DNA of 64,000 bases, taken from Planctomycetota bacterium (GTDB lineage Bacteria; Planctomycetota; Phycisphaerae; Phycisphaerales; SM1A02). Below are positions 42,653 through 58,041 of this stretch, piece after piece. The notes beneath the pieces are model-generated. The model saw only the letters and a program-made list of their open reading frames with translations, was not told the DNA's origin and did no database searches. Made by a program: the position numbers and the translations under genes. The stretch covers positions 688-64,687 of the forward strand of contig JAQCEQ010000008.1 of NCBI GenBank assembly GCA_027618565.1, written 5' to 3'. Every line of letters starts with the position of its first letter. The first letter of the stretch is position 1.

Positions 42653-43834
42653 CTAGATCACGACCCGCTTGCGTGCCCGGATCTGCTCGTTGCCAAGTTG
42701 CCCGCACGCCGCCATCGCGCTGCGACCCTTGGTGCCCCGGCGCTTGGTGAACTGGCCGTGGTCGATGCACTGGCGGACGAACCCAGTGACTTCATCCTCC
42801 GTCGGCGCACGCCAGGGCGAGTCGCGGCGCGGGTTGTAGGGAATGATGTTGAGGCTGCACCGGATCCCCTTGAGGAAGGCGCAGGCTTCGCGGGCGTGCT
42901 CGGGGCGGTCGTTCACCTCAGGGATCAGGACATATTCCACGCACAGCGCGCTGGTGGGGCGCATCGGGAACGCGACCATCGCCTCTCGCAGCTGGGCCAT
43001 GGGCTCAGCGCGGTTGATTGGCATGATCGAGGACCGGATCTCGTCGTTGGGGGCGTTGAGGCTCACAGCGAGCGTGACACGCCGGAAGCCAGGCTGCTGA
43101 ATGAACTCGCCCAGGCGGCGGATGCCATCGGTGCGCCCGACAGTGCTCACGCACACCATGCTGGAACCGACGCCGCAGCCGTTGGAGTCGCACAGGACGC
43201 GGATCGCCTGGAGCACCGTGTCCAGGTTGTCCATCGGTTCGCCCATTCCCATGAACACGATGTTCTTGACGGGGAAGCCGCGTCGGGTGCCCGAGGACCC
43301 GCCGGCCGCTGTCGCGCGGTGCGTCGCGGGTTCGTGTTCGAATGGGTTCGCCACGGTATGCCGAGCGATCCAGAACTGCTGCACGATCTCGCGTACGGTG
43401 AGGTGGCGAAGGAGCCCCATCTGCGCGGTCTCGCAGAAGCGACAGCCCATCGCGCATCCCACCTGGCTGGAGACGCAGAGGGTCCGCGTGCGGCCTCGCG
43501 CGGTGTGGTCCATCGGGATGAGGACGCTTTCGGTCTCATAGTTGCCGTCCACCGGCAGGAGGAACTTGAGCGTGGCGTCGTCTTGCTGGACTCGGGCGAT
43601 AGCGACCAGCGGCGGTGCCATCCAGCCTGTGAACACTCCGCTGCGATGCGCCGTGCGGTAAGCGTCCAGCGCGTTGGAGTTGTGCTTGACACCGACCGCG
43701 TGCGCGGCCTGGATGAACTCGGCCGCCGTGAGACTGAGGGGGTCGGGGCGCGAGTCCGCGCCGGGCGCCCTCGGCTCGGTCGGCGCGATCAGTGGGAGAG
43801 CTCCCGTTCCAAGTTGGACCAGTGGTGAGAACAT
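42653..43834 (-). CDS. rlmN: 23S rRNA/tRNA A-C2 methyltransferase RlmN (radical SAM)
   Basis: CVSSQVGCAMGCRFCETA (CxxxCxxC), IVFMGMGEPMDN, NIIPYNP. ATG at 43834 was chosen within the longer track ORF. Confidence 0.9.
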   Translation of the reverse strand: MFSPLVQLGTGALPLIAPTEPRAPGADSRPDPLSLTAAEFIQAAHAVGVKHNSNALDAYRTAHRSGVFTGWMAPPLVAIARVQQDDATLKFLLPVDGNYETESVLIPMDHTARGRTRTLCVSSQVGCAMGCRFCETAQMGLLRHLTVREIVQQFWIARHTVANPFEHEPATHRATAAGGSSGTRRGFPVKNIVFMGMGEPMDNLDTVLQAIRVLCDSNGCGVGSSMVCVSTVGRTDGIRRLGEFIQQPGFRRVTLAVSLNAPNDEIRSSIMPINRAEPMAQLREAMVAFPMRPTSALCVEYVLIPEVNDRPEHAREACAFLKGIRCSLNIIPYNPRRDSPWRAPTEDEVTGFVRQCIDHGQFTKRRGTKGRSAMAACGQLGNEQIRARKRVVI

Positions 43835-43900
43835 GAGTGAGGACACCAGCGAATCGGACAGTCTAGGTTGCCGGGGTCGATCTCCTATCATTGGATTCCC

Positions 43901-44299
43901 ATGCACATGCGCCATGACCACACGGACCACGGACCTGCCACGGTACCGGTCGAGTTCCATCTTGAGGACCCCAAGGCGCTCACGGGAAAGTCCGACAAGG
44001 TTGTTCGTGTGATGGCGGCGAAGGGCGAGCACCTCCTGGAGGTGGCCCTGGACCACGGCATCAACATCGAGCACGCGTGCGGCGGCGTATGCGCGTGCAG
44101 CACCTGCCACATCTACATCGAGAAGGGGATGGGCTCAGTGACGGAGTCCACGGAGGCGGAGGACGACCGCGTGGAGGAAGCGCCCGGAATCCAGCGCAAC
44201 TCGCGACTCGCCTGCCAGTGCGAAGTAATGGGGGACGGCCCGATCCAGCTGCGAGTGCCCGCCTGGAACCGCAACGCAGTCAAGGAAGTGCCGCACTGA
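43901..44299 (+). CDS. fdx: 2Fe-2S ferredoxin, adrenodoxin type
   Basis: CGGVCACSTCH ... LACQ cysteine pattern. ATG at 43901 (track start 43868 is TTG). Confidence 0.85.
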   Translation: MHMRHDHTDHGPATVPVEFHLEDPKALTGKSDKVVRVMAAKGEHLLEVALDHGINIEHACGGVCACSTCHIYIEKGMGSVTESTEAEDDRVEEAPGIQRNSRLACQCEVMGDGPIQLRVPAWNRNAVKEVPH

Positions 44300-44434
44300 T
44301 CATTCGCAGCTGACCGATCCGTTCAAGGGGGAGCCGGGCGAGTTGCGCCCAGTGGCATTGGCTGGAGAGGCATGCACGAAGATGTCAAGGTCACCCGGCG
44401 CATCGGCCCCGCATCCCTCCGCTAGCCTCCGTCC

Positions 44435-45457
44435 ATGCCGCGCTACTACGCCGCCGCGATCCAGACGGCGATGGAGTGTCCAGCCAGCCGGGACGAGATT
44501 CCCGCGCGGATTGCGCGCATGCTGGCGATGGCGGATGGCGCTCGCGTCGGCTACGAACCCTTTCACGACATCCGGCTCTTTGCGTTCCCTGAGTTCGCCC
44601 ACACGGTGCCGATCAAGCTGACCGTCGAGGAACTCTTGGAGTGCTACGCCGTCGAAGTGGGGGACATCGCGCCGGCCTATGAAGTGTTCTGCCGTCGGCG
44701 CGGGTGCTTTGTGCAGACGGGGACATTCCTCGAGCGCGATCCCAGGTGGCCTGGCCATGTCTTCAACACCACGCTCCTGGTCGGTCCGTCGGGTGTCCTC
44801 TCGCGCTACCGCAAGGTGAACCCGTGGATTCCATGGGAAGTGAACACCAGCCCGCATGATTTGCTCCTCCAGGGTTACTCGGAACCACTCTTCCCCGTCG
44901 TGGAGACGGAGATCGGCCGCCTGGGCTGCGCCATCTGCTACGACTGGCTCTTTCCGGAGCCACTGCGCGAGATGGCATTCGCTGGTGCGGAAGTCCTCAT
45001 TCGCGTGAGCGCCTACATGGACCCGTGGGGTGCCACCGCGCCGATGGACTGGTGGACACTCATGAATCGCGCTCGCGCGGTGGAGAACACGGCCTTTGTG
45101 CTGGCCGCCAACCAAGGCGCGAAACTGGCCCAGTACCCGCCGTTCTCGTGGCCGGGCGCCAGCATGGTGGTGGACTTCGACGGTCGGATCCTGGCGCAGG
45201 CGGATGCTGGCGAGGGCGAGCGAGTCGTCGTGGCACCCATCGATATCGACGCCCTTCGCGCCGAACGCGCGCGCCGGCGCGGACACGACATGCGTGGACA
45301 CCATCGATCCACGGCCTACCAGTACGGCACGCACGGGTACATCCGGCCTGCCGGTGTGGCGCCCACGATGGCCTCCAACGACGAACGAATCGCCGCGGCC
45401 AAGGCGAGGCTGGGTCGGAGCGTTGGTGACACAGGGTTCGCGGGAGGTGCTGCGTGA
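44435..45457 (+). CDS. Carbon-nitrogen hydrolase (nitrilase/amidase superfamily)
   Basis: FPEF (Glu), YRKVNPW (Lys) and LGCAICYDWLFPE (Cys), the CN-hydrolase catalytic triad context. Confidence 0.85.
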   Translation: MPRYYAAAIQTAMECPASRDEIPARIARMLAMADGARVGYEPFHDIRLFAFPEFAHTVPIKLTVEELLECYAVEVGDIAPAYEVFCRRRGCFVQTGTFLERDPRWPGHVFNTTLLVGPSGVLSRYRKVNPWIPWEVNTSPHDLLLQGYSEPLFPVVETEIGRLGCAICYDWLFPEPLREMAFAGAEVLIRVSAYMDPWGATAPMDWWTLMNRARAVENTAFVLAANQGAKLAQYPPFSWPGASMVVDFDGRILAQADAGEGERVVVAPIDIDALRAERARRRGHDMRGHHRSTAYQYGTHGYIRPAGVAPTMASNDERIAAAKARLGRSVGDTGFAGGAA

Positions 45458-48400
45458 CACGCGCCGCCGTCGATCGAGCCGCACTCCTCACGGTGGTGAG
45501 TGCGCTAGTGCTTGGACTGGCGCTGGTGTGGACGGTCACGCGACCGCCAGTCGCAGTGTCGGAGCGAACCGACGAGTTGAACGCCGCGCTGGACCGGGGC
45601 GTGGGGCTCATGGGGCAGTTCGACTTTGTTGGTGCAGCCAAGGCGTTCGCGGAGGGGCAGGTGCTGGCGCCTGACGATCGCCTCGCCACGCTCAACCTGG
45701 CCATCGCCATGCTCAATGGATCTGACGATGACAGCCAGGCGCGCGCGCGCGCGATGCTGGTCTTGTTGGCGGGGGGCGAGGCCGCTCCCGGCACCGACGC
45801 CAACGATGCTGCCGGGTCCGACGGCGACATCGCCATTCGCGCCGCGTATTGCATCGGACTCATCGACCTCTTCCTCGGCGAACCTGAGTCCGCCCGAGCG
45901 ACGCTGCAGCGAGTGGCGGGTCAGCGCCCCGACGACGCGTTCGCCTCGTTCTATCTGGGGCAGTCCTTCGAGATGTTGGGCGACATGGAGCAGGCGCTGC
46001 CGCACTATGCGCGCGCCGTCGAACTGGATCCGCTCCTGCGAAGTGGCGTGCTGGGGCTGTCGCGTTGCTTCATGCGAGGGGGGAACATGGAGGAAGGTGA
46101 GCGAATGCTCGCGCGGTTCGAGGAGCTTGCCGCCGACCCTCGCGCCCACCTGGCCGAGTTCAAGTACACGCGCATGGGTCCGCTCGCGATGGCGCTGCTG
46201 GCCCGCGAGGCCATCATGGTCGTCAAGCCGGCAGGGGATCCTTTCTTGCCACCAGTCCCACTGTCGGACGAGAGCGGAGTCGTCGACGGGACATTGTTCT
46301 CCCAGACGCTGGCCATCGATCTCAACGGAGACCAGTGGACGGACCTTCTGGTGATTCCGCGGCCTGTCAGCCCCACGGGCGACCCACCTCGCCCAGCCCG
46401 CGTGTTGCTTGGGTCAAGCACGGGGCTGAGCGTTGCGAGCACGGACAACACGGCGGTGAGCGGTCTCTCAGAACTCAGTGGTGTAGCCGCTGCGGGCGAC
46501 CTGGACGGCGATGGCACAACCGAGATACTCACCCTCTCCACGGGGATCTCTCAGATTGCTCGACAAGCCAGCGACCGATCCTGGAGCGTTGACGGGTTTG
46601 GCGGTGGTGTCGTCGTGCCGGAAGCGGATGTATTGGATCTCAAGTTCGCGGACCTGGACGCCGACGCGGACCTTGATGCCGTGGTCGCCACCGACGCGGA
46701 GTGGTCCATCTGGATCAACACGGGGAATGCCACCTTCCAGCCGCTTGAGGAGGCAAGGGGTGCCGAGCCCGCCTCGCCGGGATCGTTTGCTCCACGCGAT
46801 CTTCGGACGCGCGGGCGAGGGCGCGCGGAGTCCACCACGCTGGCTGATATCGACCAGGATGGCGACATCGACCTCATCCTCAATGCAGCGGCTGGTCCGA
46901 GCGAACTTTGGCTCAATGAAGGGCTCTGGTCGTGGCGACGAGACGATTCGTGGAAGCATGGTCAAGTCGCGACGACATTCGTCCATCCCGACTCAGGCGC
47001 AACCTGTGTGGTGGTGCAGCACGGGCGACAACGGCATGGACACTGCAAGGTGTACGAACTTGCCGGAACGCCAGGCTGGCGAGCGGGTGGGGAACCGGAC
47101 CGCCTGCTGCTGGACGCGCGGGGGCACACCCTGGATACCGCCGTGATCGATGTCGCGGGCACGGGGCGTCCTTCCATCATCTCCACGCAGATGGAGCGGG
47201 AGATCGTCACGCGAGTGTGGTCCCTGGAGGGCGCACTGCTCCAGGAGTTCGAGGGCTTCTCGCTCCTCAATGTGCTGGTGGATCGGGATGATCGCGGCCC
47301 GACGCTGCTTGGCGCACTCCACAAGGATCAGGGTGGCGCAACCATTCCCAATGCGCTCGCCCTCTGCGCTCCCGGTCCCGGCCGGCTGCCGTTCGCGTCC
47401 TTCACGCTCAGCGGTCGCGTGGATCCATCGCAGAGCATGCGATCCAATGCGTCCGGCGTCGGCACCTCCTACGCGATTCGCAACGGAGCGGCCTGGGCCC
47501 AGGGGAGCGTGTTGCCGCACAGCAGTGCCGGTGCGCAGGGCGTGCAGCCGGAGGCGGTCGGGCTTGCGGGTCGCCCCGCGGCCGACTTCATGCGCCTGGA
47601 GTGGCCCGACGCGCTCTTGCAGACGGAACTTGACCTCAAGCCCGGCCACTCCATGATCGTTGAGATGCAGCGGCAAGTGTCCTCGTGCCCCGTGATCTTT
47701 GGATGGGACGGTGACGAGTTTCAGTTCGTGACGGATTGCCTTGGTGTTGGTGGCATCGGGTACCTGGCCAGCGTGGAGCGCACGGCGCAGGGGCTTGTGC
47801 CCCAGTACGCGGTGCCCACCCCGCGCGAGAGCGTGCTGCTGCCTGCGGCGGCGGTGGTGCCTCGCGACGGCGTGATCGAGCTGCGCCTTGGCGAGCCGAT
47901 GGAGGAGTCGTGCTACCTGGATGCCGCACGACTGGTGGCGTACGACCTTCCCAGCGGCTGGGACATGACGGTGGATGAGCGACTGGCGATCCTCGGACCG
48001 CCCGCCACGGGGAAGCCCATCTTCTGGAGGGACGAGTCCATCGCGCGCGTGGTGTCCGCCTCGGTGGCAGGGTGCGGAGATGCGACGACCGCTCTTGCGC
48101 AGGCCGACGGCACCGCTGCGGTGGGACCGGTTGAGCATCCCCGTCACATTGGATTGCTCTCGTCGCCGCTGGTGCTGACTCTTGTGTTTGATCGCCCCAT
48201 CCACCAACTGACCGGCGATCCCGTGCTGCTCATGGAGGGTTGGGTGGAGTACCCGTACTGCCAGACCAACTTTGCGATGTGGCAGGAGGGGATCTCGCCC
48301 AAGGCGCCCACCTTTGATGCGCTGGACCCGGCCACTGGAGACTGGGTCACGCTCCAGGAACAGTACGGATACCCCGCCGGCATGCCTCGCCTTGCGGCGT

Positions 48401-48966
48401 TCCCGCTTGACCGGGAGAAACTGCCCATGGGCTGCACGACGCTCCGCCTGACCACCACCGTCGAGCTTTACATCGATCGCATTCGCTGTGTCGGAGCCGA
48501 GCTGTGCACGAACGCTCGGGTCCAAGAGTGCCCGTTCCTCGGGGCGAGCGCCGCCGAGTGCGGGTTCCCGTTGCGCTCGACGCTCCCCCAGAAGCGCCCG
48601 CACTACGACTACTCACGCCGCGCGCCATTGTGGGACACACGCACGCAGGTCGGGTTCCTCACGGCGTTCGGTAACTGTGCGCCACTCCTCGTCGATGTCG
48701 ATGACGCCTGCGCGATGTTCGGTCCCGGCGAAGAGATCCGCCTGCGGTTCACGCCACCTGCCGAACCGATCCCCGGGTCTGAGACGACGAGGCATTGGAT
48801 CCTTCAACTGAACGGCTGGTGCAAGGACATGGATCGCTACACAGGCAGTGGTGCGACGATCGACCCGCTCCCGACTCGCGATGGCTCTGCCCCCAGCGAG
48901 ACGGCGCGCTCCCTGCACGATCGCTTCAACACTCGCCGTACGGGGAACGGCTCTGCGAGCAACTGA
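45454..48966 (+). CDS. Membrane-anchored TPR + FG-GAP/VCBS + ASPIC/UnbV protein with large C-terminal domain
   Basis: N-terminal TM helix and TPR-like helices, FG-GAP calcium loops (IDLNGDQWTDLLV, GDLDGDGTTEIL, ADLDADADLDAVV, ADIDQDGDIDLIL), a UnbV-like segment (NASGVGTSYAIRNG...RLEWPDA), then ~500 aa (SCPVIFGWDGDEFQFVTDCLG...). GTGA overlap with the nitrilase gene. Confidence 0.8.
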   Translation: MTRAAVDRAALLTVVSALVLGLALVWTVTRPPVAVSERTDELNAALDRGVGLMGQFDFVGAAKAFAEGQVLAPDDRLATLNLAIAMLNGSDDDSQARARAMLVLLAGGEAAPGTDANDAAGSDGDIAIRAAYCIGLIDLFLGEPESARATLQRVAGQRPDDAFASFYLGQSFEMLGDMEQALPHYARAVELDPLLRSGVLGLSRCFMRGGNMEEGERMLARFEELAADPRAHLAEFKYTRMGPLAMALLAREAIMVVKPAGDPFLPPVPLSDESGVVDGTLFSQTLAIDLNGDQWTDLLVIPRPVSPTGDPPRPARVLLGSSTGLSVASTDNTAVSGLSELSGVAAAGDLDGDGTTEILTLSTGISQIARQASDRSWSVDGFGGGVVVPEADVLDLKFADLDADADLDAVVATDAEWSIWINTGNATFQPLEEARGAEPASPGSFAPRDLRTRGRGRAESTTLADIDQDGDIDLILNAAAGPSELWLNEGLWSWRRDDSWKHGQVATTFVHPDSGATCVVVQHGRQRHGHCKVYELAGTPGWRAGGEPDRLLLDARGHTLDTAVIDVAGTGRPSIISTQMEREIVTRVWSLEGALLQEFEGFSLLNVLVDRDDRGPTLLGALHKDQGGATIPNALALCAPGPGRLPFASFTLSGRVDPSQSMRSNASGVGTSYAIRNGAAWAQGSVLPHSSAGAQGVQPEAVGLAGRPAADFMRLEWPDALLQTELDLKPGHSMIVEMQRQVSSCPVIFGWDGDEFQFVTDCLGVGGIGYLASVERTAQGLVPQYAVPTPRESVLLPAAAVVPRDGVIELRLGEPMEESCYLDAARLVAYDLPSGWDMTVDERLAILGPPATGKPIFWRDESIARVVSASVAGCGDATTALAQADGTAAVGPVEHPRHIGLLSSPLVLTLVFDRPIHQLTGDPVLLMEGWVEYPYCQTNFAMWQEGISPKAPTFDALDPATGDWVTLQEQYGYPAGMPRLAAFPLDREKLPMGCTTLRLTTTVELYIDRIRCVGAELCTNARVQECPFLGASAAECGFPLRSTLPQKRPHYDYSRRAPLWDTRTQVGFLTAFGNCAPLLVDVDDACAMFGPGEEIRLRFTPPAEPIPGSETTRHWILQLNGWCKDMDRYTGSGATIDPLPTRDGSAPSETARSLHDRFNTRRTGNGSASN

Positions 48967-48992
48967 GTCTCAACCGCCGATAGGATGCAACC

Positions 48993-51788
48993 ATGGAAGT
49001 CGTCACCCCGCGCCTGAAGAAGACGTACTTCGTGATTGCGGGGCTCTTCGCGCTACTCCTCGTCAATTCGCTGTATCTGGTGGGGACCACGCTGACGGAA
49101 AAGGTGCTCCAGAAAAACGTGGAGGATGGCCTCTACCTCTGGATGTTCTTGGCACACCTGATCCTCGGGTTGATCATCACGATCCCGGTGATCGGCTTTG
49201 GCATTCTCCACATGCGCATGGCATGGCAGCACCCCAACCGGCGCGCCCGAAACCTGGGGCTGGCACTCTTCTCCACGTCGATCATCCTGCTTCTCACAGG
49301 CATCGTCCTCACGCGTGTGGACATCGGTCCCGTGCGATTCGGCGTGACCGATCCCTCATGGCGGATCGCCAACTACGCACTGCATGTCATCACGCCCGTC
49401 ATGGTGATCGTGCTCTTCATCCTCCACCGCAAGGAAGCGGGGCGGATCTACTGGAAGGACGGACTCAAGTGGGGCGGCGCGGCCGTCGCGGCATTCATCG
49501 TGGTCGGACTCTGGCACGGCACGGTCATGGCCAGCAAGGGGCGCCCGCCGATTGGTGGCGAGCAGTACTTTCAGCCCAGCCTGGTTCGCACCAGCACCGG
49601 CAACCTTGCGGACCTCGACGACTTCACCTTTGACACCGAGTGCATCGCCTGCCATGAAGACTCGGTGAAGACCCACGAGCAGAGCGTCCACAACTTCAGC
49701 TCATTCAATAACCCGTTCTACGCCTTTTCGGTCCGAAACACACGCAAGGCGATGTACGAACGTGACGGCAATGTGCACGCCAGCCGCTTCTGCGCGGGTT
49801 GCCACGATCCGGTGCCATTCCTGACCGGCGCCTTTGAATTGGAGAAGTGGGACGATCCCTCCTACGACGTGGCCTCCGACCCGCTGGGCAAGGCTTCGCT
49901 CACCTGCACGGCCTGCCACGGCATCGTGGGCCTTGACGGAGTGCAGGGCAACGGTGGCTATGTCTTCGAGGCGCCCAAGCCGTACCCATTCCAGAGTTCC
50001 GGCAACCCATTCCTCACGTGGGTGAACCACTCGCTCATCAAGGCACGGCCCTCCTTCCACAAGCGGTCGTTCCTCAAGCCTGAGATCCACCGGAGTGCCG
50101 AGTTCTGCGCCTCGTGCCACAAGGTCTTCATCCCCGAGGAGCTCACGCACTACAAGTGGGCTCGCGGCCAGGACCACTATGACTCGTGGCGGACCAGCGG
50201 CGTCTCGGGCAACGGCATCGAGTCCTGGTACTACCCGCCGAAGGCCGACCTCAACTGCAATGGCTGCCACATGCAGTCGATCGCCAGCGCCGACCTTGGT
50301 GCCGAGCGCATGGACGATTCTGGCCAACTGAAAATTCCGTCGCATGCGTTCCCCTCGGGGAACCCCGCGATCGCGGCGTACCTGGACCTCCCCTGCAAGG
50401 ACGAGGTGTTGGCCAACACCATTGAGTTCAACAAGGGCGTCTTCCGCGCCGACATCATTGCGCTGCGAGAGGGCGCCAGTGTGGGGGCCGAAGCCATCGC
50501 GCCGCTCCGCCCTGAAGTCCCAGCGCTCAAGCGCGGGCAGGAGTACCTCATCGATGTGCTCATGCGTACCGTGAAGATGGGCCACATGTTCACGCAGGGG
50601 ACTTCCGATAGCAACGAGACCTGGATCGAGGTGGAACTCACTTCGGGAGACCGACGAATCGGCTTGAGCGGCGGCATGGACGATGTGGGGGCGGTGGACC
50701 CCTGGTCCAAATTCCTCAATGCGTACATCGTGGACCGTGACGGCAATCACATCGTCCTTCGCAATGTGCAGGACATCTTCACCGCTCTCTACAACCACCA
50801 GATCCCGCCTGGTGCGGCGGACCTGACGCACTACAAGTTCGTGGTTCCCGAGGATGCCGGCCCCACCGTGACGGTGACGGCGACGATGAAGTACCGCAAG
50901 TTCACCCATGTCTATACGGAGGCCGTGGCCGGCAAGCCCATCGTGATGGACTTGCCAATCCTTGTCCTGGCCACCGACAGCGTCACCTTCCCCGTCGCCC
51001 CCCGTGACGGCAACGACCCGATCGCCAAGATGGCTGTGCAGGAATCCGCCATCCCACTCTGGCAGCGGTGGTACGACTACGGGATCGGCGCGATGCGGCA
51101 CGAGGCGGGGATGACCAAGGGAAACCTGCGGCTGGCACAGCAGTGCTTCACCAAGGTGGAAGAACTGCAAGGTGGCATCGGCGCGGCAGCGCGCGGGCGT
51201 GCGTTCCTCGTGGAGGGGCGCATCGACGATGCTGCCGAAGCGTTTGCACGCGCAGGAGAGGGTGCCATGCCCGCCTTCCCCTGGATGCACGAGTATTGGG
51301 TGGCGCGGATCAACCGCGAGCGCGGTGCGCTGCAAGAGGCCGCGAAGGGATTTGAGACCGTGCTGGCCACGCCGTGGCCCATGGCGAAGGAGCGGCAGTT
51401 TGACTTCTCCCGCGATGAGCGCGTCTGGCTGGCGCTTGCAGAAGTTCGGTTCGAGCTTGCGCGCCAGGCGGAGCCGACCGACTCAACGGCGTCCACTGTG
51501 CTGCTTGCCACCGCACAAGACGCGGTGTCCGAGGCCCTCGTGCTTGACCCGGAGAACATTCGAGGGTGGTATCTGCGGATGCAATTGGCTGTTGCCCAAG
51601 GCGACACGGCGCTGGAGGGCAAGGCGCAGTCGCAATACCTCCGCTACAAGCCCGATGACAACGCCGCGGATCGTGCGCTCCGCCTGGCCCGCGAGCAGGA
51701 TGCCGCCGCCAACGCGGCCGCCGAGGCGATCGTCATTTATGACCTCCAGCGCGAAAGCGCTTTCAACAGGGTCAGCACGAATGAGTGA
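48993..51788 (+). CDS. Membrane-anchored penta-heme c-type cytochrome with C-terminal TPR-like region
   Basis: ~5 N-terminal TM helices, five CxxCH motifs (CIACH, CAGCH, CTACH, CASCH, CNGCH), and C-terminal helical repeats. Confidence 0.85.
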   Translation: MEVVTPRLKKTYFVIAGLFALLLVNSLYLVGTTLTEKVLQKNVEDGLYLWMFLAHLILGLIITIPVIGFGILHMRMAWQHPNRRARNLGLALFSTSIILLLTGIVLTRVDIGPVRFGVTDPSWRIANYALHVITPVMVIVLFILHRKEAGRIYWKDGLKWGGAAVAAFIVVGLWHGTVMASKGRPPIGGEQYFQPSLVRTSTGNLADLDDFTFDTECIACHEDSVKTHEQSVHNFSSFNNPFYAFSVRNTRKAMYERDGNVHASRFCAGCHDPVPFLTGAFELEKWDDPSYDVASDPLGKASLTCTACHGIVGLDGVQGNGGYVFEAPKPYPFQSSGNPFLTWVNHSLIKARPSFHKRSFLKPEIHRSAEFCASCHKVFIPEELTHYKWARGQDHYDSWRTSGVSGNGIESWYYPPKADLNCNGCHMQSIASADLGAERMDDSGQLKIPSHAFPSGNPAIAAYLDLPCKDEVLANTIEFNKGVFRADIIALREGASVGAEAIAPLRPEVPALKRGQEYLIDVLMRTVKMGHMFTQGTSDSNETWIEVELTSGDRRIGLSGGMDDVGAVDPWSKFLNAYIVDRDGNHIVLRNVQDIFTALYNHQIPPGAADLTHYKFVVPEDAGPTVTVTATMKYRKFTHVYTEAVAGKPIVMDLPILVLATDSVTFPVAPRDGNDPIAKMAVQESAIPLWQRWYDYGIGAMRHEAGMTKGNLRLAQQCFTKVEELQGGIGAAARGRAFLVEGRIDDAAEAFARAGEGAMPAFPWMHEYWVARINRERGALQEAAKGFETVLATPWPMAKERQFDFSRDERVWLALAEVRFELARQAEPTDSTASTVLLATAQDAVSEALVLDPENIRGWYLRMQLAVAQGDTALEGKAQSQYLRYKPDDNAADRALRLAREQDAAANAAAEAIVIYDLQRESAFNRVSTNE

Positions 51789-53682
51789 GACCAGCGTCCC
51801 CGGTCAGGAGCCCGGCCCGGAGCCCGGTCCATCCGCGATGTCGCCGACGAAAGTGGTCCTTGGCGGGGTGGCACTCGCTGCGGTGATTGCCGGACTCTGG
51901 TGGGTCTCCCGGCCCGCGCCCACGCCCATTGACAAGCCTGAGGTTGCGCCGCCCAAGCCGAAGGATGCCACCCTCGTGCAGCCTTCGTTCATGGCCGTCA
52001 CGGGGCTTCCGGCGTGGTCGCACACCACTGGGGCCCGAGGCGAACGCCTGCTCCCGGAGACCCTCGGCGGCGGCGCCGCGATCGCTGACCTGGACAACGA
52101 TGGGGCGCTGGACATCATCCTCGCGGATGGGCTCAACTGGTCGGGCGATGCCTTTGCCAGTGCGCCATCGGCGGGGTCGACAGGTCTGCGCATCCTTCGA
52201 TCCGCTGGCGGGCCGGATGCGTCGGAGCCGCGCTTTGACGCGGTGTCGCTTGCCAATCGCCCGATCTACGCGATGGGCGTCTACGCCGTCGACTTCGACG
52301 GTGACGATCGAACGGACCTCTATGTCACTGGCGTGAAGACCCCGCACACGCCGGGACATCTGCTGCTTCGCAACGTGACGCCACCCGGCGGCACGATTGC
52401 CTTTGAGGATGTCACCGAGGCTCGCGGCCTCACCACCGAGCCCGGGTGGGGCACAGCCGCGGTCTGGTTTGACGCCGATCTTGACGGAGACCTGGACCTA
52501 CTCACGGCGCAGTACGTGAAGTGGAGCCCGGAGATCGACCGAAGCGTTGGGTACACGCTCACCGGCGTCGGTCGTTCCTATGGCCCGCCCACGGGTTTTG
52601 AGGGCGCAGACCCGATTTTCTATCGACAGCAGGCGGACGGCTCCTTCGTGGATGACACGACGAGTGCCGGCTTCATCGTGCGCAACCGCGCCACTGGCGT
52701 CCCCGTCGGCAAGACCCTTGGCGCCATCGCGACCGACATCGACGGAGACGGTGACCAGGATGTCGTGCTGGCCAACGACACGGTGGCCAACTTCGTCTTC
52801 CTCAACGATGGCCAGGGGCGATTCATGGAGTCCGGAGTCTCCACCGGAATCGCGTTTGACAAGATGGGCGCAGCAACGGGCGCGATGGGGATCGACTCAG
52901 CCGTCATCGTGGATGAACGAGCAGCATCCGACACCGCTAAGGCGCGCCCCGGCAAGCTGGCCATCGCCATCGGCAACTTCGCCAACGAGCCCGATTCCTT
53001 TTTTACGTCGCCCACCGGGCGACTGCAATTCACCGACGACGCCATCCTCTGCGGCGTGGGAGTCCCCACCCGGCGCGTGTTGACCTTTGGGCTACTCCTG
53101 GAGGATGTCAATCAGGACGGCGCGCTGGATGTGGTCCAGTCCAATGGCCATCTGGAGCCCGAGATCGGCGTGGTGCAAGCGGGCCAGGAGTTCCACCAGC
53201 CTGGCCAGGTGCTGCTGCAATCACCGGGCAGGGGCATGTTCCAGCTTGCGCAACCCGAGGCGCACGGTGCCGTGGGTGCGAAGCGTGTGGGGCGCGGATT
53301 GGCATCGGGCGACCTGAACGCAGACGGTGCCGTCGATTTTGTCTTCACCTCCAACGCCGGCGCGGCGGAGGTCATCCTCGGACAGACTTCCGGCCTGCCG
53401 GGCGGCCAGGTCATCGTGGTGTCTGGCCAGGGAGCGATGGGGAATCGTCAGGGACTGGGTGCCCTGCTGGTCGCAACGCTCCAGGATGGCTCTACGCGCC
53501 TCCGGTCCATAGCACCCCATCGGGGCTATCTCTCTTCCAGCGAGCCCGTGGCACGGCTCGTGCTGGCTCCTGGAGAATCGATCCGATCGCTCACGTTGAG
53601 GTGGCCCGACGGGGTGGAGCAGGTCCTTGAAGTGCCAGCGCGCTCGGCACCAACGGCGTTGATCACCGCAACGCGAGACTGA
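51781..53682 (+). CDS. CRTAC1-family protein (FG-GAP/VCBS repeats + ASPIC/UnbV)
   Basis: ATG at 51781 overlaps the cytochrome gene by 8 nt. TM anchor, ADLDNDGALDIILADG, VDFDGDDRTDLYV, DADLDGDLDLL, TDIDGDGDQDVVLAND, NQDGALDVV, GDLNADGAVDFVF, and a UnbV-like C-terminus (NRQGLGALLVATLQDGS...LRWPDG). Confidence 0.85.
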   Translation: MSETSVPGQEPGPEPGPSAMSPTKVVLGGVALAAVIAGLWWVSRPAPTPIDKPEVAPPKPKDATLVQPSFMAVTGLPAWSHTTGARGERLLPETLGGGAAIADLDNDGALDIILADGLNWSGDAFASAPSAGSTGLRILRSAGGPDASEPRFDAVSLANRPIYAMGVYAVDFDGDDRTDLYVTGVKTPHTPGHLLLRNVTPPGGTIAFEDVTEARGLTTEPGWGTAAVWFDADLDGDLDLLTAQYVKWSPEIDRSVGYTLTGVGRSYGPPTGFEGADPIFYRQQADGSFVDDTTSAGFIVRNRATGVPVGKTLGAIATDIDGDGDQDVVLANDTVANFVFLNDGQGRFMESGVSTGIAFDKMGAATGAMGIDSAVIVDERAASDTAKARPGKLAIAIGNFANEPDSFFTSPTGRLQFTDDAILCGVGVPTRRVLTFGLLLEDVNQDGALDVVQSNGHLEPEIGVVQAGQEFHQPGQVLLQSPGRGMFQLAQPEAHGAVGAKRVGRGLASGDLNADGAVDFVFTSNAGAAEVILGQTSGLPGGQVIVVSGQGAMGNRQGLGALLVATLQDGSTRLRSIAPHRGYLSSSEPVARLVLAPGESIRSLTLRWPDGVEQVLEVPARSAPTALITATRD

Positions 53683-53711
53683 CCCGCACGGCTCCGCCGG
53701 GGATCGCCATG

Positions 53712-53743
53712 AAAAAAGGGCGAGCCTCTGAGGAGGCCCGCCC
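53712..53743 (-). terminator. Intrinsic terminator of the minus-strand FG-GAP gene (also ends the convergent plus-strand operon)
   Basis: On the minus strand GGGCGGGCCTC-CTCA-GAGGCTCGCCC (one mismatch) is followed by TTTTTTC. It lies 27 nt after the TAA at 53770-53772. Confidence 0.8.
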
Positions 53744-53769
53744 TGTGTGGCAATCACTTCAACTCAGCC

Positions 53770-56280
53770 TTACGGACAGGCGCTGCCGAAGACGCTCAGG
53801 AGCGCCGCAAGATCAGACCCGTCGGTGGTGCCGTTGCCGTCGATGTCGCCGCCAGCAGTCCCCCAGCCGGCGAGGAGACCGCCAAGGTCGGCGCCGTCGA
53901 TTACTCCGTCACCGGTGATGTCGGCAGGGCATGGCGTGCCCGAGTCGCACTGGACCTGGGAGACCGTGATGTCGTCGATTGCCGCTTCCGTCACGGAGTC
54001 GTTGGGGTTGTCGCCGATGACGAAGCGGAGCCGGAACGACTGGCCCGGGGTGCCGCCGCTGGAGAGTGTGAAGGACCGCTCCGTCCAGCCTCCCGAGCCC
54101 GTCATGCTCTGGACCGTGACCCATGCACCGTCGCCGATGGACACTTGCGTGAGCAGCGAGTCGGCAGACGTTGGGCTCGCTGCATCGTCGCAGTAAATCC
54201 AGGACCAGTAGGTCACCAGGGCGTCGCCGCCACCATTCGCAATCGCAGAGGAAGTGAGGTGGGTCGGCCCGAGGTCCACATCGCTGGCGCCCGCAGTGCT
54301 CCCAGCTGGTCCGGGGTAGGTGACAAAGCACTGCGTCCCCGAGGCTGTGTGATCGTTGCTTGGCTCAGCCGTGGCGCCGCTGGTGGTGACCGTGCCATTG
54401 GGATCGGCCCGCGCCCAAGCACCCACGCTCAGCGATGGATCACTGGTCACGGTGAAGCCGGCATCGCCGGACTCGAAGTCGGTGGCGAAGATCGTTGTCG
54501 TGCCGGTGGCGACGGTCATCGAGTACGGGTTGTTGGCTCCGCCAGTTGGCGCGACATAGATCGTTGAGCCGCCATTGGAGAGTTGTCCCGAGACATAGAA
54601 GTCAAGGCCGTCGCCGCAGGAGACGATGGGAAGCGTCGCACGGTAGTTGTTCCCGCCGGTGGAGACCAACGGCGCAGCCACCCACGCTCCGTGGTTGATG
54701 CGTGTGTGTTGCTGGGCGTTGAGGAGCGTTCCACCGCCGGCGATGGCCGCGCTGACGTCCACCGGAACGGCCTGGGCGGGTGCCACGGTCGACGGCACTC
54801 CCGCGGGGAAGGTGAACGCCAGGCTGAGCGGCGGCTGATTCATCCAGACGCGTACGCCGGAGCAGGCTCCGGACACCACGTCCAGCCAGCCGTCGCCGTT
54901 GAGGTCGAAGATCGCGACATCGAACCACGCAGCAAGCGCGCTGTTGGGGATGACATTGCCCTCCTCGACCAGCATGCCGGACGTCGTGACATTCTTGTTG
55001 TGGTAGATGTGCGTCCGGCGACCCGTGGTCGGGCAGAACGATGGCAAGTCGGCATCGACATCGACGATGATGCAATCGGGCCGGCCGTCCTTGTCCAGGT
55101 CATCGCAGTGGATGGCGTTGCCGAACTCACCGACAGCGCCGGTGAGGTTGTAGCCCGTCACCGTGATCTGTTCGTTGGCTTGCGTGCTGGTATTGATCCA
55201 GTATTTGTCGACGCCATCGTTGGCATCCACGATGTCCAGCCGACCGTCGCCGTTGAGGTCGCTGATCGCAAATTCGTAGGGCGTGCCGGTAATCAGGTCA
55301 TGTGGACCGATAAAGGCATTGCCGGGGCTTCCGCCGGAGTTCGTGTTGTAGATGATCCCGGTCGCTTGCCCCCCCGTCAGCGTGTTGGTCCGGATGATGT
55401 CCAGGAGCCCGTCGCCGTTCATGTCGGCGATTTCGGCAGCGTTGCCGAAGCCCGCGGCGAGCTGCGCAGAGGTTGCGCGCGAGGTGGTGCTATCGGTGAA
55501 ATGTCCGGGGTTGGCGGCTCCCTGGTTGATGAGGAGCTTGTTCTGGTAGTCGTTTGTTGAGCTCTCGCCCGGCGACTGCTGGCATTCTCCGGCATCGTTG
55601 GTGTCACCATCTCCATTGAGGTCGATGCACACCGTGCCGCTGGTCTCCGGCGTGTCGTAGTCGGCGAAGAAGAGGTCGGGGTAGCCGTCGCCAGTGAGGT
55701 CGCCAAAGGCAAACTCGCAGAAGCGGGGGTTGGCCGCAGTGCCGTTCGCCGCAAACAGCGTAGGGATCCGGTTATCCTCGAATCGGAAGCCCAGCCAGTT
55801 GCCCTGGGCATCGTCGCCGCGGTTCATGTACACACGCGGCTGACCGAGGTATTGCGGCAGGCCGTCGGACATCGTGGTGCAGGTGACGAGGTCCAGCCAT
55901 CCGTCCAGGTCCACATCGACGGCCTTGACATCGCGGTCGTTCGTGGCGTCCAGGAATCCCTGCGATCCGGCGTAGTCCGACGCGGTGGCAAGCGCCACGG
56001 TCCGGTCCACCAGGACACCGCCCTCGTTCATGAGGAGGTTGTTGGGGAAGCCACCCTGGATCGAGCCGGGGAACTTCTTCACCATGACCAGATCGATGTC
56101 GCCATCGTGGTCCCAGTCGCCGAAGGTGAAGTCCTTCTCCAGGTTGTCGGCGTTTTGGAGCGATGCCGGGCTCAGGCGGCTGGCAGACTCGTTGGCGAGC
56201 GTCACCCACTCGCCGAAGGCGGTGGAGCCAACGGTCAGGGCGGCGAGACACATGGCAAAGACGGTTGCTGGTCGGATCAT
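53770..56280 (-). CDS. Secreted FG-GAP/VCBS-repeat protein with MAM-like domain and C-terminal twin dockerin-like module
   Basis: Signal peptide, multiple DxDxDG loops (GDWDHDGDIDLVMV, VDLDGWLDLV, GDLTGDGYPDLFFAD, ADMNGDGLLDII, SDLNGDGRLDIV, DLNGDGWLDVV), a segment EPSNDHTASGTQCFVT...AAIDDITV homologous to the paralog pair at 10-15 kb, and the tail ADITGDGVIDGADLGGLLAGWG...DIDGNGTTDGSDLAALLSVFG. Confidence 0.8.
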   Translation of the reverse strand: MIRPATVFAMCLAALTVGSTAFGEWVTLANESASRLSPASLQNADNLEKDFTFGDWDHDGDIDLVMVKKFPGSIQGGFPNNLLMNEGGVLVDRTVALATASDYAGSQGFLDATNDRDVKAVDVDLDGWLDLVTCTTMSDGLPQYLGQPRVYMNRGDDAQGNWLGFRFEDNRIPTLFAANGTAANPRFCEFAFGDLTGDGYPDLFFADYDTPETSGTVCIDLNGDGDTNDAGECQQSPGESSTNDYQNKLLINQGAANPGHFTDSTTSRATSAQLAAGFGNAAEIADMNGDGLLDIIRTNTLTGGQATGIIYNTNSGGSPGNAFIGPHDLITGTPYEFAISDLNGDGRLDIVDANDGVDKYWINTSTQANEQITVTGYNLTGAVGEFGNAIHCDDLDKDGRPDCIIVDVDADLPSFCPTTGRRTHIYHNKNVTTSGMLVEEGNVIPNSALAAWFDVAIFDLNGDGWLDVVSGACSGVRVWMNQPPLSLAFTFPAGVPSTVAPAQAVPVDVSAAIAGGGTLLNAQQHTRINHGAWVAAPLVSTGGNNYRATLPIVSCGDGLDFYVSGQLSNGGSTIYVAPTGGANNPYSMTVATGTTTIFATDFESGDAGFTVTSDPSLSVGAWARADPNGTVTTSGATAEPSNDHTASGTQCFVTYPGPAGSTAGASDVDLGPTHLTSSAIANGGGDALVTYWSWIYCDDAASPTSADSLLTQVSIGDGAWVTVQSMTGSGGWTERSFTLSSGGTPGQSFRLRFVIGDNPNDSVTEAAIDDITVSQVQCDSGTPCPADITGDGVIDGADLGGLLAGWGTAGGDIDGNGTTDGSDLAALLSVFGSACP

Positions 56281-56382: not shown

Positions 56383-58041
56383 TCATGAGCAGGGGCCCCA
56401 AGCGGAGAGCATTTGGGCCAGATCCTGGCCGTCGACCGTTCCATTCCCATCAATGTCCGCGTCCGCGCCGCCCCAGCTGCTCAGGAGCGTGGCGAGGTCG
56501 GAGCCGTCCACGGCGCCGTTGCCGTCCAGATCGGCCGGGCAGGTGGCGCAGGAATCGAGGATGCCGTCGCCGTTGGAGTCGAGCGATGAATCCAAGGCGA
56601 TGTCAATCGCGTCGGGCACAGAGTTCGAGTCGCAATCGTCGGATGGGCCTTCCCAGGCGGCAAGGAATGCTGCCGCGTCAACGAAGTTAATCACTCCGTC
56701 TCGATTGATGTCGTGCACGGCGCACGGCTGGTCCGGGTCGGTTGGCCCTTCGCACGCCACAAAGTCATTGAAGTCCACGATGTCGATGACGCCGGTGAAG
56801 TCCGCATCAAACTCCAGCCGGCCAAGTGATCGGAGGAAGGCGACGAGCTGCGCCTTCTGCGCAGGCCCCAGCGCAGCGAACCCGGCAGCCGACGCCGCGC
56901 CCTCGCCAAACGGGCCGTGGGCCTCGATCGTGGCAGTCACGCGGTCCGCGAAGATGCCGCCCGCCACGCGACCATCGTGGAGCATGAGGTCGCGTGTGGC
57001 CAGGTTCCAGAGGACTGGCGTGCGGAACTCAAACTCGTTGGCATCACCCTGCTGGATGCCGTCGGCCAGCGTTCCCATGTCGTGCAGGAGGAAGTCGCTG
57101 TAGATCCTGGCGCTCTGGTTCCGGAGCGCGGGCTCCAGGTTGGGGTCATCAGGAGTCTGCCAGTCCCGAACATGGCACTTGGCACAGCCAATCTGGTTGA
57201 AGATCGTCTCACCCATCATGCCCGATAGGGGTGTCTGCGGTGGCATGCCGAGGTAACGCTGGAAGTGAGTCACTCGCTCGATGAAGGTGTACCCCGCAGC
57301 GTCAGGAACATCTTCGGGATCCGGAGCGATGTCGCACTGTGCGAGGAGGCTGTAGTCGCCATTCGGCGGGTTTTCCGTAGGCACCAGGCTGTTGGTGAAT
57401 CCCATCTCGTTTCGGGTGGCGTCACCGGAAAAGGAGAAGAGCGTGGCGACCTGGGCCTTCCAGCCAAAGCGTCCCGGTCGAAGTCCGCCGGTCGGATCTT
57501 CAAGCACTTCCACATAGTGGACCTTGCCGGAGATGCCGTCGCCGTCGCTGTCGGTCGGGTCGGCGTTGGCGACGATGTCAGCATCAGCGATCGAATCAAC
57601 GATGCCAAACGCGAGAGAGCTGTTGGTGACACGCAAGGAAACGACCGTGGCGTCCGCGGGGAGGATCTCCTTGCACGATGGGCTGATCGACTCTGCCTGG
57701 AGGAGCGATTGGACCTCACCGGGGTATTCAAAAAACTCGCCCTTCTTGTCCAGGCCAAATCGCGTCACCGTGATCGACCCCCACCCACCCGTCGGCACCG
57801 AATGGCACGACTGGCAGTTGGTCTTGTTGAAGATCGGGCCCAAGCCTTGTTCAATCGTTGGCGGAGTGGCAAACAAGACTTTTCCCACCTCAAAGAGCGC
57901 CAGTTCCTCCGGGCTCAATCCCTGCAAGGGAGCGCCCGCCTTGGGCTGCAGCGTGGATCCGCCGGCTTGGGCGAGAGCGATGCTCGCGACGGGCATGGCG
58001 AGGATGGAAGCGAGCGAAAGCAGTCGCGGGGTGAACAACAT
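56383..58041 (-). CDS. Di-heme oxidoreductase (DUF1111 family) fused to EF-hand/dockerin-like C-terminal modules
   Basis: Signal peptide, CQSCH and CAKCH heme motifs, GRFGWKAQVATL family motif, and the C-terminus DINRDGVINFVD..., DLDGNGAVDGSDLATLLSSWGGADADIDGNGTVDGQDLAQMLSAWG. Confidence 0.8.
   Translation of the reverse strand: MLFTPRLLSLASILAMPVASIALAQAGGSTLQPKAGAPLQGLSPEELALFEVGKVLFATPPTIEQGLGPIFNKTNCQSCHSVPTGGWGSITVTRFGLDKKGEFFEYPGEVQSLLQAESISPSCKEILPADATVVSLRVTNSSLAFGIVDSIADADIVANADPTDSDGDGISGKVHYVEVLEDPTGGLRPGRFGWKAQVATLFSFSGDATRNEMGFTNSLVPTENPPNGDYSLLAQCDIAPDPEDVPDAAGYTFIERVTHFQRYLGMPPQTPLSGMMGETIFNQIGCAKCHVRDWQTPDDPNLEPALRNQSARIYSDFLLHDMGTLADGIQQGDANEFEFRTPVLWNLATRDLMLHDGRVAGGIFADRVTATIEAHGPFGEGAASAAGFAALGPAQKAQLVAFLRSLGRLEFDADFTGVIDIVDFNDFVACEGPTDPDQPCAVHDINRDGVINFVDAAAFLAAWEGPSDDCDSNSVPDAIDIALDSSLDSNGDGILDSCATCPADLDGNGAVDGSDLATLLSSWGGADADIDGNGTVDGQDLAQMLSAWGPCS

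Follow-up and report, generated by a model that had tools for sequence, protein, structure and literature searches.

Conserved pairing of a multiheme membrane cytochrome with a CRTAC1-like propeller protein in a cell-envelope gene module of Planctomycetota and other bacteria

We analysed a 64,000-nt stretch of DNA from a Planctomycetota bacterium (GenBank assembly GCA_027618565.1, contig JAQCEQ010000008.1, positions 688 to 64,687 of the forward strand; hereafter the window, numbered from its first letter), in which an initial annotation had proposed that five co-directional genes form an undescribed redox system of the envelope. Our data indicate that positions 44435-53682, comprising four of the five genes, constitute a conserved cell-envelope module of two sub-modules: a core formed by a membrane cytochrome and a CRTAC1-like propeller protein, and an optional pair formed by a C-N hydrolase and a very large envelope protein (the giant). 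Gene order was conserved far beyond chance for these four genes, the ferredoxin at the 5' end being the exception. With confidence that is about evenly balanced, we read the module as a quinone-linked periplasmic electron conduit whose tetratricopeptide repeat (TPR) arm would dock membrane-anchored propellers. The five genes are as follows.

43901-44299, plus strand: 2Fe-2S ferredoxin of 132 residues (Fer2, E = 1.4e-11; C60-x5-C66-x2-C69 motif)
44435-45457, plus strand: C-N hydrolase of 340 residues (PF00795, E = 6.7e-33; intact triad Glu53-Lys127-Cys168; no transmembrane segment)
45454-48966, plus strand: giant of 1170 residues (anchor at residues 4-30, TPR, FG-GAP propeller, C-terminal beta-sandwich array of about 530 residues)
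48993-51788, plus strand: membrane cytochrome of 931 residues (five transmembrane helices, five c-heme sites, beta-sandwich, TPR arm)
51781-53682, plus strand: CRTAC1-like protein of 633 residues (membrane anchor, calcium-loop FG-GAP propeller, UnbV_ASPIC domain)

Spurious open reading frames (ORFs) are frequent in this region owing to its high G+C content (63-68% in the window). The five genes are nevertheless solid: the gene calls of both ENA and NCBI for the Planctomycetota metagenome-assembled genome (MAG) GCA_027623385.1 give identical coordinates for all of them, which bears out the initial annotation of five co-directional genes. Both start/stop overlaps that it had described are likewise real, the hydrolase and giant genes sharing 4 nt (GTGA) and the cytochrome and CRTAC1-like genes sharing 8 nt (ATGAGTGA). 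The remaining gaps measure 135 nt (ferredoxin to hydrolase) and 26 nt (giant to cytochrome). Its domain calls were reproduced with Pfam as Fer2, CN_hydrolase, TPR/FG-GAP and FG-GAP_3/UnbV_ASPIC, except that UnbV_ASPIC was undetected in the giant of the window, although most of the full-length homologs of that protein have a PF07593 entry.

The linkage between cytochrome and CRTAC1-like genes was evaluated by tblastn of the window proteins against loci encoding homologs of the cytochrome, 67 of which extended for 2 kb or more downstream of the cytochrome. A CRTAC1 ortholog on the same strand started no more than 400 nt downstream of the cytochrome in 59 of the 67 loci, and lay within 7 kb in 65. 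The testable linked loci are labelled Planctomycetota, Verrucomicrobiota, Acidobacteriota, Gamma- and Betaproteobacteria and Methylomirabilota, a number of bacterial groups that should be read with care as it follows public MAG labels, some of which are unreliable. The adjacent CRTAC1 copy displayed a median identity of 38%, compared to 27-31% for the remaining paralogs of these loci, indicating that a specific ortholog has been retained. Start/stop overlaps of 4-8 nt recur at this junction in loci L003, L086, L087 and L088. Next to the distant cytochromes of L090 and L094 (29-31% identity) the order is inverted to TPR-CRTAC1-cytochrome, and in L094 the successive TPR, CRTAC1-like and cytochrome genes overlap by 4 nt. 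Of the genomic evidence for a functional connection, this persistence of the link through both deep divergence and a change of order carries the most weight. Unsupervised clustering of every ORF in these loci led to the same conclusion and revealed no other widely conserved neighbour. We also considered whether the whole cluster represents mere lineage synteny. This explanation fails for the cytochrome-CRTAC1 and the hydrolase-giant pairs, which are both conserved across distant groups, and for the former also because it survives in permuted order. The conserved gene order expected from the initial annotation was thus found for these two pairs, but not for the ferredoxin, which is confined to the clade of the query.

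The cytochrome belongs to a large family. More than 3018 homologous proteins were retrieved at E ≤ 1e-5, and the best 120 of them, three closer relatives aside, display 45-51% identity over at least 97% of the length. When the TPR arm was excluded from the query (residues 1-690), 462 clusters at 50% identity were found at E ≤ 1e-30 and 1390 at E ≤ 1e-10. When one genome was scanned for each GTDB species, at least 600 stretches matched, of which 582 were confirmed, so that the cytochrome is present in at least 582 species; the best 80 of these loci carry the labels Planctomycetota, Verrucomicrobiota, Acidobacteriota/Thermoanaerobaculia, Gamma- and Betaproteobacteria, Latescibacterota and Methylomirabilota. 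Cultured carriers include Rhodopirellula europaea, R. maiorica and Stieleria mannarensis, and the cytochrome-CRTAC1 pair is present in cultured Rhodopirellula and Stieleria strains (L049, L054 and L068). At eight loci (L036, L053, L058, L062, L067, L075, L076 and L079) the MAG label looks implausible for a contig of 55-73% G+C, with examples such as Kuenenia, Akkermansia, Bifidobacterium and Limnohabitans, suggesting binning or labelling errors. We could not find either the cytochrome family or its pairing with CRTAC1 described in a full-text literature search, and on that basis regard the family as previously undescribed.

Established families were approached by this protein only below their cutoffs. 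Cytochrome_C554 (PF13435) scored 17.6 bits for this copy against a Pfam gathering threshold of 20.8, and a precomputed PF13435 match is recorded for many homologs. The decaheme cytochromes of the MtrC/OmcA type likewise remained below cutoff (PF22113, 25.7 bits versus 30; TIGR03507, 18.3 versus 209). No Pfam family of NapC/NirT tetraheme cytochromes or of known b-type subunits was matched either by the full protein or by ten N-terminal domains at E ≤ 10. Foldseek comparison of the full model with the PDB returned TPR proteins only (best E = 3.2e-4), indicating that, at the sensitivity of this search, no solved structure is closely analogous to the transmembrane, heme and beta-sandwich parts. 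Residues 191-690, used as a single-sequence query against the PDB, gave no match.

An AlphaFold2 model built on 103 sequences (predicted local distance difference test, pLDDT, 90.2; predicted template modelling score, pTM, 0.87) divides the cytochrome into four parts, and residue conservation was counted over 79 sequences.

49008-49526, plus strand: transmembrane domain, residues 6-178 (invariant H55, H73, H131, H145, R108 and R146; predicted di-heme b site)
49641-50270, plus strand: penta-heme c region, residues 217-426 (CxxCH at 217, 267, 305, 372 and 422)
50442-50996, plus strand: predicted beta-sandwich, residues 484-668 (modelled strands; invariant polar cluster)
51057-51719, plus strand: predicted C-terminal TPR solenoid, residues 689-909 (modelled helical repeats; Foldseek/PDB matches to TPR proteins only)

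The modelled transmembrane helices comprise residues 6-39, 46-77, 83-106, 121-149 and 154-178. Judged from basic residues, the N-terminal end and the loops that follow helices 2 and 4 face the cytoplasm, and the heme domain would therefore be periplasmic. Four histidines are distributed over two of the helices (46-77 and 121-149) at two matched depths: H55 and H131 are set back by about 9-10 residues from the periplasmic end of their helix, H73 and H145 by four residues from the cytoplasmic end. All four are retained in 78-79 of 79 sequences. Di-heme cytochromes b of the FdnI, NarI, CybB and b561 kind show this pattern, and the invariant R108 and R146 flank the histidines where heme propionates would be placed. 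The four histidines thus probably bind two b-type hemes.

The heme region that follows (residues 180-480, approximately) is mostly irregular in the model. It contains exactly five CxxCH motifs (C217, C267, C305, C372 and C422), which are invariant in all 79 sequences and likewise in all members of a set of 103. Among the candidate distal ligands H233, H356, H451 and H531 are invariant, while H366 (window positions 50088-50090) is histidine in 73 of the 79 sequences and methionine in five, a swap that would be typical of an axial heme ligand. Five CxxCH motifs together with five conserved distal-ligand positions suggest an electron wire of five six-coordinate c hemes rather than a catalytic heme; that one of the five might be catalytic was considered and judged unlikely for the same reason. 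In a profile search heme motifs 1-3 aligned with cytochrome c552 (PDB 5ZE8) at E = 2.7e-5, which reflects a distant relationship only, and weaker alignments were obtained with an MccA-like protein and c554. The beta-sandwich, for which neither PDB nor Pfam gave a match, carries the invariant residues H531, G536, T537, D539, S540, N541, D569, W571, R590, N591, Y600, R635, K636 and F637. The TPR solenoid is followed by a conserved C-terminal strand. The four invariant transmembrane histidines at two depths agree with the earlier description of this protein as built to carry electrons across the membrane.

Next to the cytochrome, the product of the last gene is by its domains a true member of the CRTAC1/ASPIC family. 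FG-GAP_3 (E = 4.5e-21; 75.6 bits versus a cutoff of 26.9) and UnbV_ASPIC (PF07593, residues 558-620; E = 2.5e-9; 37.3 bits versus 23.4) were both detected above their Pfam thresholds, and residues 92-243 matched human CRTAC1 (PDB 9ETN_A) at E = 2.7e-11. The epidermal growth factor (EGF)-like domain of vertebrate CRTAC1 is missing, as no EGF family was returned by the Pfam scan. A hydrophobic anchor spans residues 19-37. Homologs share many invariant calcium loops of the DxDxDG type and an invariant polar and aromatic set (R265, Y267, G367-D372, N399-E403, N455-H457, Q469 and Q473).

The hydrolase is a member of the nitrilase (C-N hydrolase) superfamily and is predicted to be cytoplasmic. It exceeds the PF00795 cutoff by far (114.5 versus 23.2 bits), and the intact triad E53, K127 and C168 lies in FPE, YRK and CYD motifs, patterns that were found in 120 of 120 homologs. 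NCBIfam equivalog cutoffs were not reached, neither for formamidase, its best match (96.5 bits versus 406), nor for aliphatic amidase (63.8 versus 427). The giant that follows carries a hydrophobic segment at residues 4-30 and, by Pfam, TPR and FG-GAP_3 domains; its similarity to the CRTAC1-like protein in BLASTP is limited to FG-GAP repeats. It has many invariant residues, and its C-terminal part of about 530 residues is strongly conserved. The model of the last 531 residues (pLDDT 80.6) is an all-beta array of beta-sandwiches, for which Foldseek returned weak matches to the N-terminal region of reelin (E = 1.9e-4) and to discoidin-, APC10- and carbohydrate-binding module (CBM)-like folds (E about 1e-2), and no enzyme fold.

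A giant homolog is located directly upstream of the cytochrome in 15 of 53 loci (19 if weaker relatives are included), and 11 of 14 testable loci have the hydrolase directly upstream of the giant. The same association was seen from the side of the hydrolase, a family with 6181 matches (best 61-71% identity): in three of three unrelated genomes (L084-L086) the giant follows immediately downstream, and two of the three continue with cytochrome and CRTAC1. These two are a 3.2-Mb genome with the order hydrolase-giant-cytochrome-CRTAC1 and a Wenzhouxiangellaceae gammaproteobacterium with the same order, in which each pair of adjacent genes overlaps by 4 nt. Hydrolase and giant also occur in three other cytochrome clades (L012, L026 and L043), there without ferredoxin. 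The third hydrolase-side genome, a 7.6-Mb planctomycete, contains the hydrolase-giant pair alone (L084:10001-14948), without cytochrome or CRTAC1, indicating that the two sub-modules are separable. By its distribution the hydrolase-giant pair is an optional sub-module, seemingly added in a minority of lineages including that of the query. The link between a predicted cytoplasmic hydrolase and a predicted periplasmic giant is, on these gene neighbourhoods, genomically firm.

The ferredoxin, by contrast with these four genes, is probably an ISC-type (iron-sulphur cluster) housekeeping Fdx that is adjacent by descent and stands outside the module, even though its score with TIGR02007 (fdx_isc) was below the NCBIfam threshold (93.1 versus 132.1 bits). 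When the cytochromes were placed in a neighbour-joining tree, only the clade of the query showed the order ferredoxin-hydrolase-giant; this clade also keeps a housekeeping radical-SAM RlmN-like gene on the other strand. The ferredoxin gene is followed by IscX (PF04384) in L003:3216-5151 and L088:4648-5327, a context that supports an ISC role; no IscX is present in the 135-nt gap of the window. An IS110 transposase has inserted between the ferredoxin-IscX pair and the hydrolase in L003, L006 has the ferredoxin but lacks the hydrolase, and none of six loci outside the clade (L012, L026, L043 and L084-L086) has a ferredoxin upstream of the hydrolase. The earlier inclusion of the ferredoxin as a component of the system is therefore withdrawn: as part of a conserved unit it was rejected because it is limited to one clade, and lineage synteny was accepted instead. 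A five-gene version, in which the ferredoxin would be the dedicated cytoplasmic electron donor to the membrane cytochrome, appears highly improbable. Co-direction at a distance of 135 nt, the order ferredoxin-hydrolase-giant-cytochrome in about 10 related loci, and a predicted b-heme pair that would reach the cytoplasmic face are in its favour; those loci are however the one clade that has also retained RlmN, and the IscX pairing, the IS110 insertion, the lack of the hydrolase in L006 and the six ferredoxin-free loci all argue against it.

The features that flank the module are listed below.

53717-53744, minus strand: terminator hairpin (perfect 12-bp stem and U6 on the minus strand; z = -3.25)
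53770-56280, minus strand: FG-GAP protein of 836 residues (FG-GAP_3, E = 1.7e-22; weak C-terminal match to a GC-type dockerin)
56383-58041, minus strand: DHOR di-haem oxidoreductase of 552 residues (PF06537)
58220-60891, plus strand: second pair of a TPR protein (325 residues) and a CRTAC1-like protein (565 residues), encoded by ORFs 58220-59197 and 59194-60891 with a 4-nt overlap

The hairpin had been taken for a clean terminator after the last gene of the operon. On the minus strand it folds better than every shuffled sequence and sits 25 nt past the stop of the convergent gene 53770-56280. Read on the plus strand, the stem is imperfect, A6 precedes it and no U-tract follows. As the U-tract is present on the minus strand only, the hairpin is the terminator of the convergent gene, and an assignment as the end of the plus-strand operon was rejected on its polarity. 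It may also stop the plus-strand transcript by a weak bidirectional action via A6. A hairpin at this convergent junction does not provide evidence for the position of the operon end.

The dockerin match of the 836-residue FG-GAP protein was sub-threshold (Dockerin_GC, 19.5 bits versus 29). Homologs of the protein are encoded just after the CRTAC1 gene in nine loci and are also present in L087 and L088, the latter with two copies. DHOR genes were detected by tblastn near the cytochrome in 10 other loci (L004, L005, L006, L010, L011, L018, L038, L087, L088 and L089) in varying arrangements, upstream on the same strand in L038 and L089 and rearranged in L087. In L089, the gene immediately preceding that of the cytochrome, and co-directional with it, encodes a protein of 872 residues that combines DHOR, cytochrome c and RoxA-like domains. 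The second pair in the window matches TPR_16 in its first protein and FG-GAP_3 and UnbV_ASPIC in its second, and a TPR gene followed by a CRTAC1 gene also directly precedes the distant cytochromes of L090 and L094. The TPR protein of 58220-59197 showed no specific similarity to the TPR of the giant or of the cytochrome, so that the recurrence of TPR beside CRTAC1 is a matter of architecture, not of orthology. Two further distant cytochromes (L092:2-2845 and L093:1-1971, both on the minus strand, 31-32% identity) each face a gene encoding a fusion of a response-regulator receiver with a PPDK_N-like domain. On the other side of the module, a long radical-SAM ORF (42653-44110, minus strand; RlmN-like by its CxxxCxxC region) diverges from the ferredoxin gene and overlaps it; public gene calls start further in, ending at 4842-4854 of L001. 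In L003 and L088 a LAB_N gene adjoins the radical-SAM RlmN-like gene.

Taken together, we propose that the cytochrome would be anchored in the cytoplasmic membrane as an electron conduit and be translationally coupled to a membrane-anchored propeller. Two b hemes on transmembrane helices 2 and 4 would form the link from the quinone pool, or else from the cytoplasmic face, to the periplasm, where five six-coordinate c hemes would form a chain ending at the conserved beta-sandwich. The TPR arm and the beta-sandwich would hold the propeller, and the giant where it is present, beside the heme wire, and a substrate bound by propeller or giant might be oxidised or reduced there. The gene order with its overlaps, its conservation among bacterial groups, the heme-binding motifs, the modelled membrane topology and the domain families are observed; the binding of b hemes, the contact between TPR and propeller and the flow of electrons are what we infer from these features. 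Architecture supports the TPR-propeller contact, because TPR is fused to the propeller in the giant, lies upstream of the second CRTAC1-like gene at 58220-60891 and precedes the distant CRTAC1-cytochrome pair. A more far-reaching version, which we consider possible but doubtful, holds that bacterial CRTAC1/ASPIC propellers are working partners of a seven-heme (two b and five c) transmembrane conduit, and that the CRTAC1 fold would be a platform for redox catalysis or substrate presentation rather than a passive adhesin.

Several observations weigh against this proposal. When ten N-terminal domains were searched against Pfam at E ≤ 10, only noise was returned, and a PDB profile search with the transmembrane domain likewise gave noise (best E = 0.33, unrelated). 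As no known heme-b family was matched, it is the histidine pattern that argues for b-heme binding, and the pairing of these histidines as well as the assignment of distal ligands to the c hemes are to be taken as candidates. Among homologs of the CRTAC1-like protein no cysteine is invariant and a cofactor motif could not be recognised, so that nothing would involve the propeller itself in redox chemistry. The cytochromes of L079, L092 and L093 have no adjacent CRTAC1 gene, and because these genomes hold many CRTAC1/FG-GAP paralogs, adjacency by chance is more frequent to begin with. Moreover, there is a precedent for a cytochrome c that serves a calcium-binding propeller without electron transfer, namely TfcP, which stimulates calcium binding by PilY1 and for which electron transfer was considered unlikely (PMC8833165). 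By analogy, the cytochrome might be a heme-stabilised scaffold or chaperone, or a redox sensor, acting through its TPR arm on calcium propellers that would be adhesins or binding proteins. The abundance of invariant DxDxDG loops in a partner devoid of redox motifs would fit, as would the fact that TPR arm and beta-sandwiches are binding folds. Such a role is unlikely in our view, since seven predicted hemes across the membrane would be a heavy investment for a scaffold, and since ten heme cysteines, five motif histidines, four of five distal ligands and four transmembrane histidines are invariant over deep divergence.

MauG/MbnH-type di-haem enzymes oxidise partner proteins, and an oxidative maturation of the same kind, in which penta-heme cytochrome and DHOR would modify propeller and FG-GAP proteins and the CRTAC1-like protein would be a substrate, could be envisaged for the module. 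We regard this as quite unlikely. DHOR proteins, which we take to be relatives of MauG and cytochrome c peroxidase (CCP), do recur near the pair in varying arrangements (in the window and 10 loci), and the propeller offers further invariant aromatic residues (W120, W223, W248 and Y245, besides Y267). A CRTAC1-family gene has also been noted between genes for homologs of hydrazine synthase (HZS) alpha and beta-gamma in non-anammox bacteria (PMC12758564). However, all five c hemes appear six-coordinate, leaving no open catalytic heme, DHOR occurs in no more than about 12 of the 93 loci, most of them from the clade of the query, and a conserved Cys/Trp pair of the sort that marks cross-linked cofactors was not seen. 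Very unlikely, finally, is an extracytoplasmic redox reaction with metals or polymers (iron, manganese, humics or oxidised polysaccharide) that propellers and beta-sandwiches would bind, for which CbcL/ImcH-type inner-membrane cytochromes and pairs of quinoprotein propeller and cytochrome c might serve as models. The sub-threshold similarities to MtrC/OmcA domains and c554, the resemblance of the giant C-terminus to CBM- and discoidin-like jelly rolls and the dockerin-like ends of neighbouring FG-GAP proteins point in this direction, but the Foldseek matches are weak, neither a pyrroloquinoline quinone (PQQ) nor a metal-site motif was identified, and ORF clustering of the loci revealed no conserved genes for a porin-cytochrome or outer-membrane conduit nearby. 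Many hosts, read from their names, are presumably aerobic heterotrophs, which we also counted against it. The quinone-linked conduit with docked propellers thus remains our preferred reading.

CbcL has a b-type membrane domain and c hemes, and CbcL, ImcH and CymA (of the NapC/NirT type) are presumed to link the quinone pool to periplasmic partners. The cytochrome described here resembles them in combining a membrane anchor with a periplasmic multi-heme c domain. It differs in that it matches neither a NapC/NirT nor a cytochrome b family of Pfam, in its additional beta-sandwich and TPR arm, and in having a CRTAC1-like propeller as its neighbour instead of a periplasmic or outer-membrane cytochrome. 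With c554/c552 (5ZE8) it shares the signature C-x2-CH-x6-W-x2-S-x-H within the aligned motifs 1-3, whereas those proteins are soluble and have no transmembrane, beta-sandwich or TPR parts. The bacterial CRTAC1-like protein shares the FG-GAP calcium-loop propeller and UnbV_ASPIC with vertebrate CRTAC1/ASPIC, from which it is set apart by its N-terminal anchor, the absence of an EGF-like domain and a cytochrome as operon partner. The only related mention that we found in the literature, a passing remark, concerns the hydrazine-synthase homolog clusters, in which a CRTAC1-family FG-GAP gene likewise stands among genes for periplasmic c-heme proteins; these clusters, likened here by description only, have homologs of HZS alpha and beta-gamma as heme partners (PMC12758564). 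In TfcP-PilY1 a c-type cytochrome is also tied to a calcium-binding beta-propeller in the cell envelope (PMC8833165), but TfcP is small and mono-heme, has His/Cys ligation and serves type IV pili, while the present cytochrome is membrane-integral, contains five c-heme motifs and lacks a pilus context. The likeness to MauG/MbnH is confined to the recurrence of a di-haem CCP-like gene (PF06537) near the module; DHOR lies outside the core, and no modified residue or target motif was identified.

The novelty lies in a membrane multiheme protein, a putative conduit, whose membrane domain, periplasmic additions and class of partner are all new. The protein represents a large family, and its transmembrane domain is unmatched in Pfam and PDB and yet has its histidines arranged as in a di-heme route for electrons across the membrane. 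CRTAC1/ASPIC-UnbV proteins range from bacteria to humans, with many representatives in Planctomycetota, Verrucomicrobiota, Acidobacteriota and marine Gammaproteobacteria; to our knowledge, no biochemical function is known for any of them, vertebrate CRTAC1 included. A conserved redox-protein partner is thus the first testable lead to the role of CRTAC1-type propellers. If the seven-heme conduit reading holds true, this widely conserved family would for the first time become accessible to biochemistry. The cytochrome itself would be an additional point of entry from the quinone pool to the periplasm in heterotrophs that are abundant in the environment.

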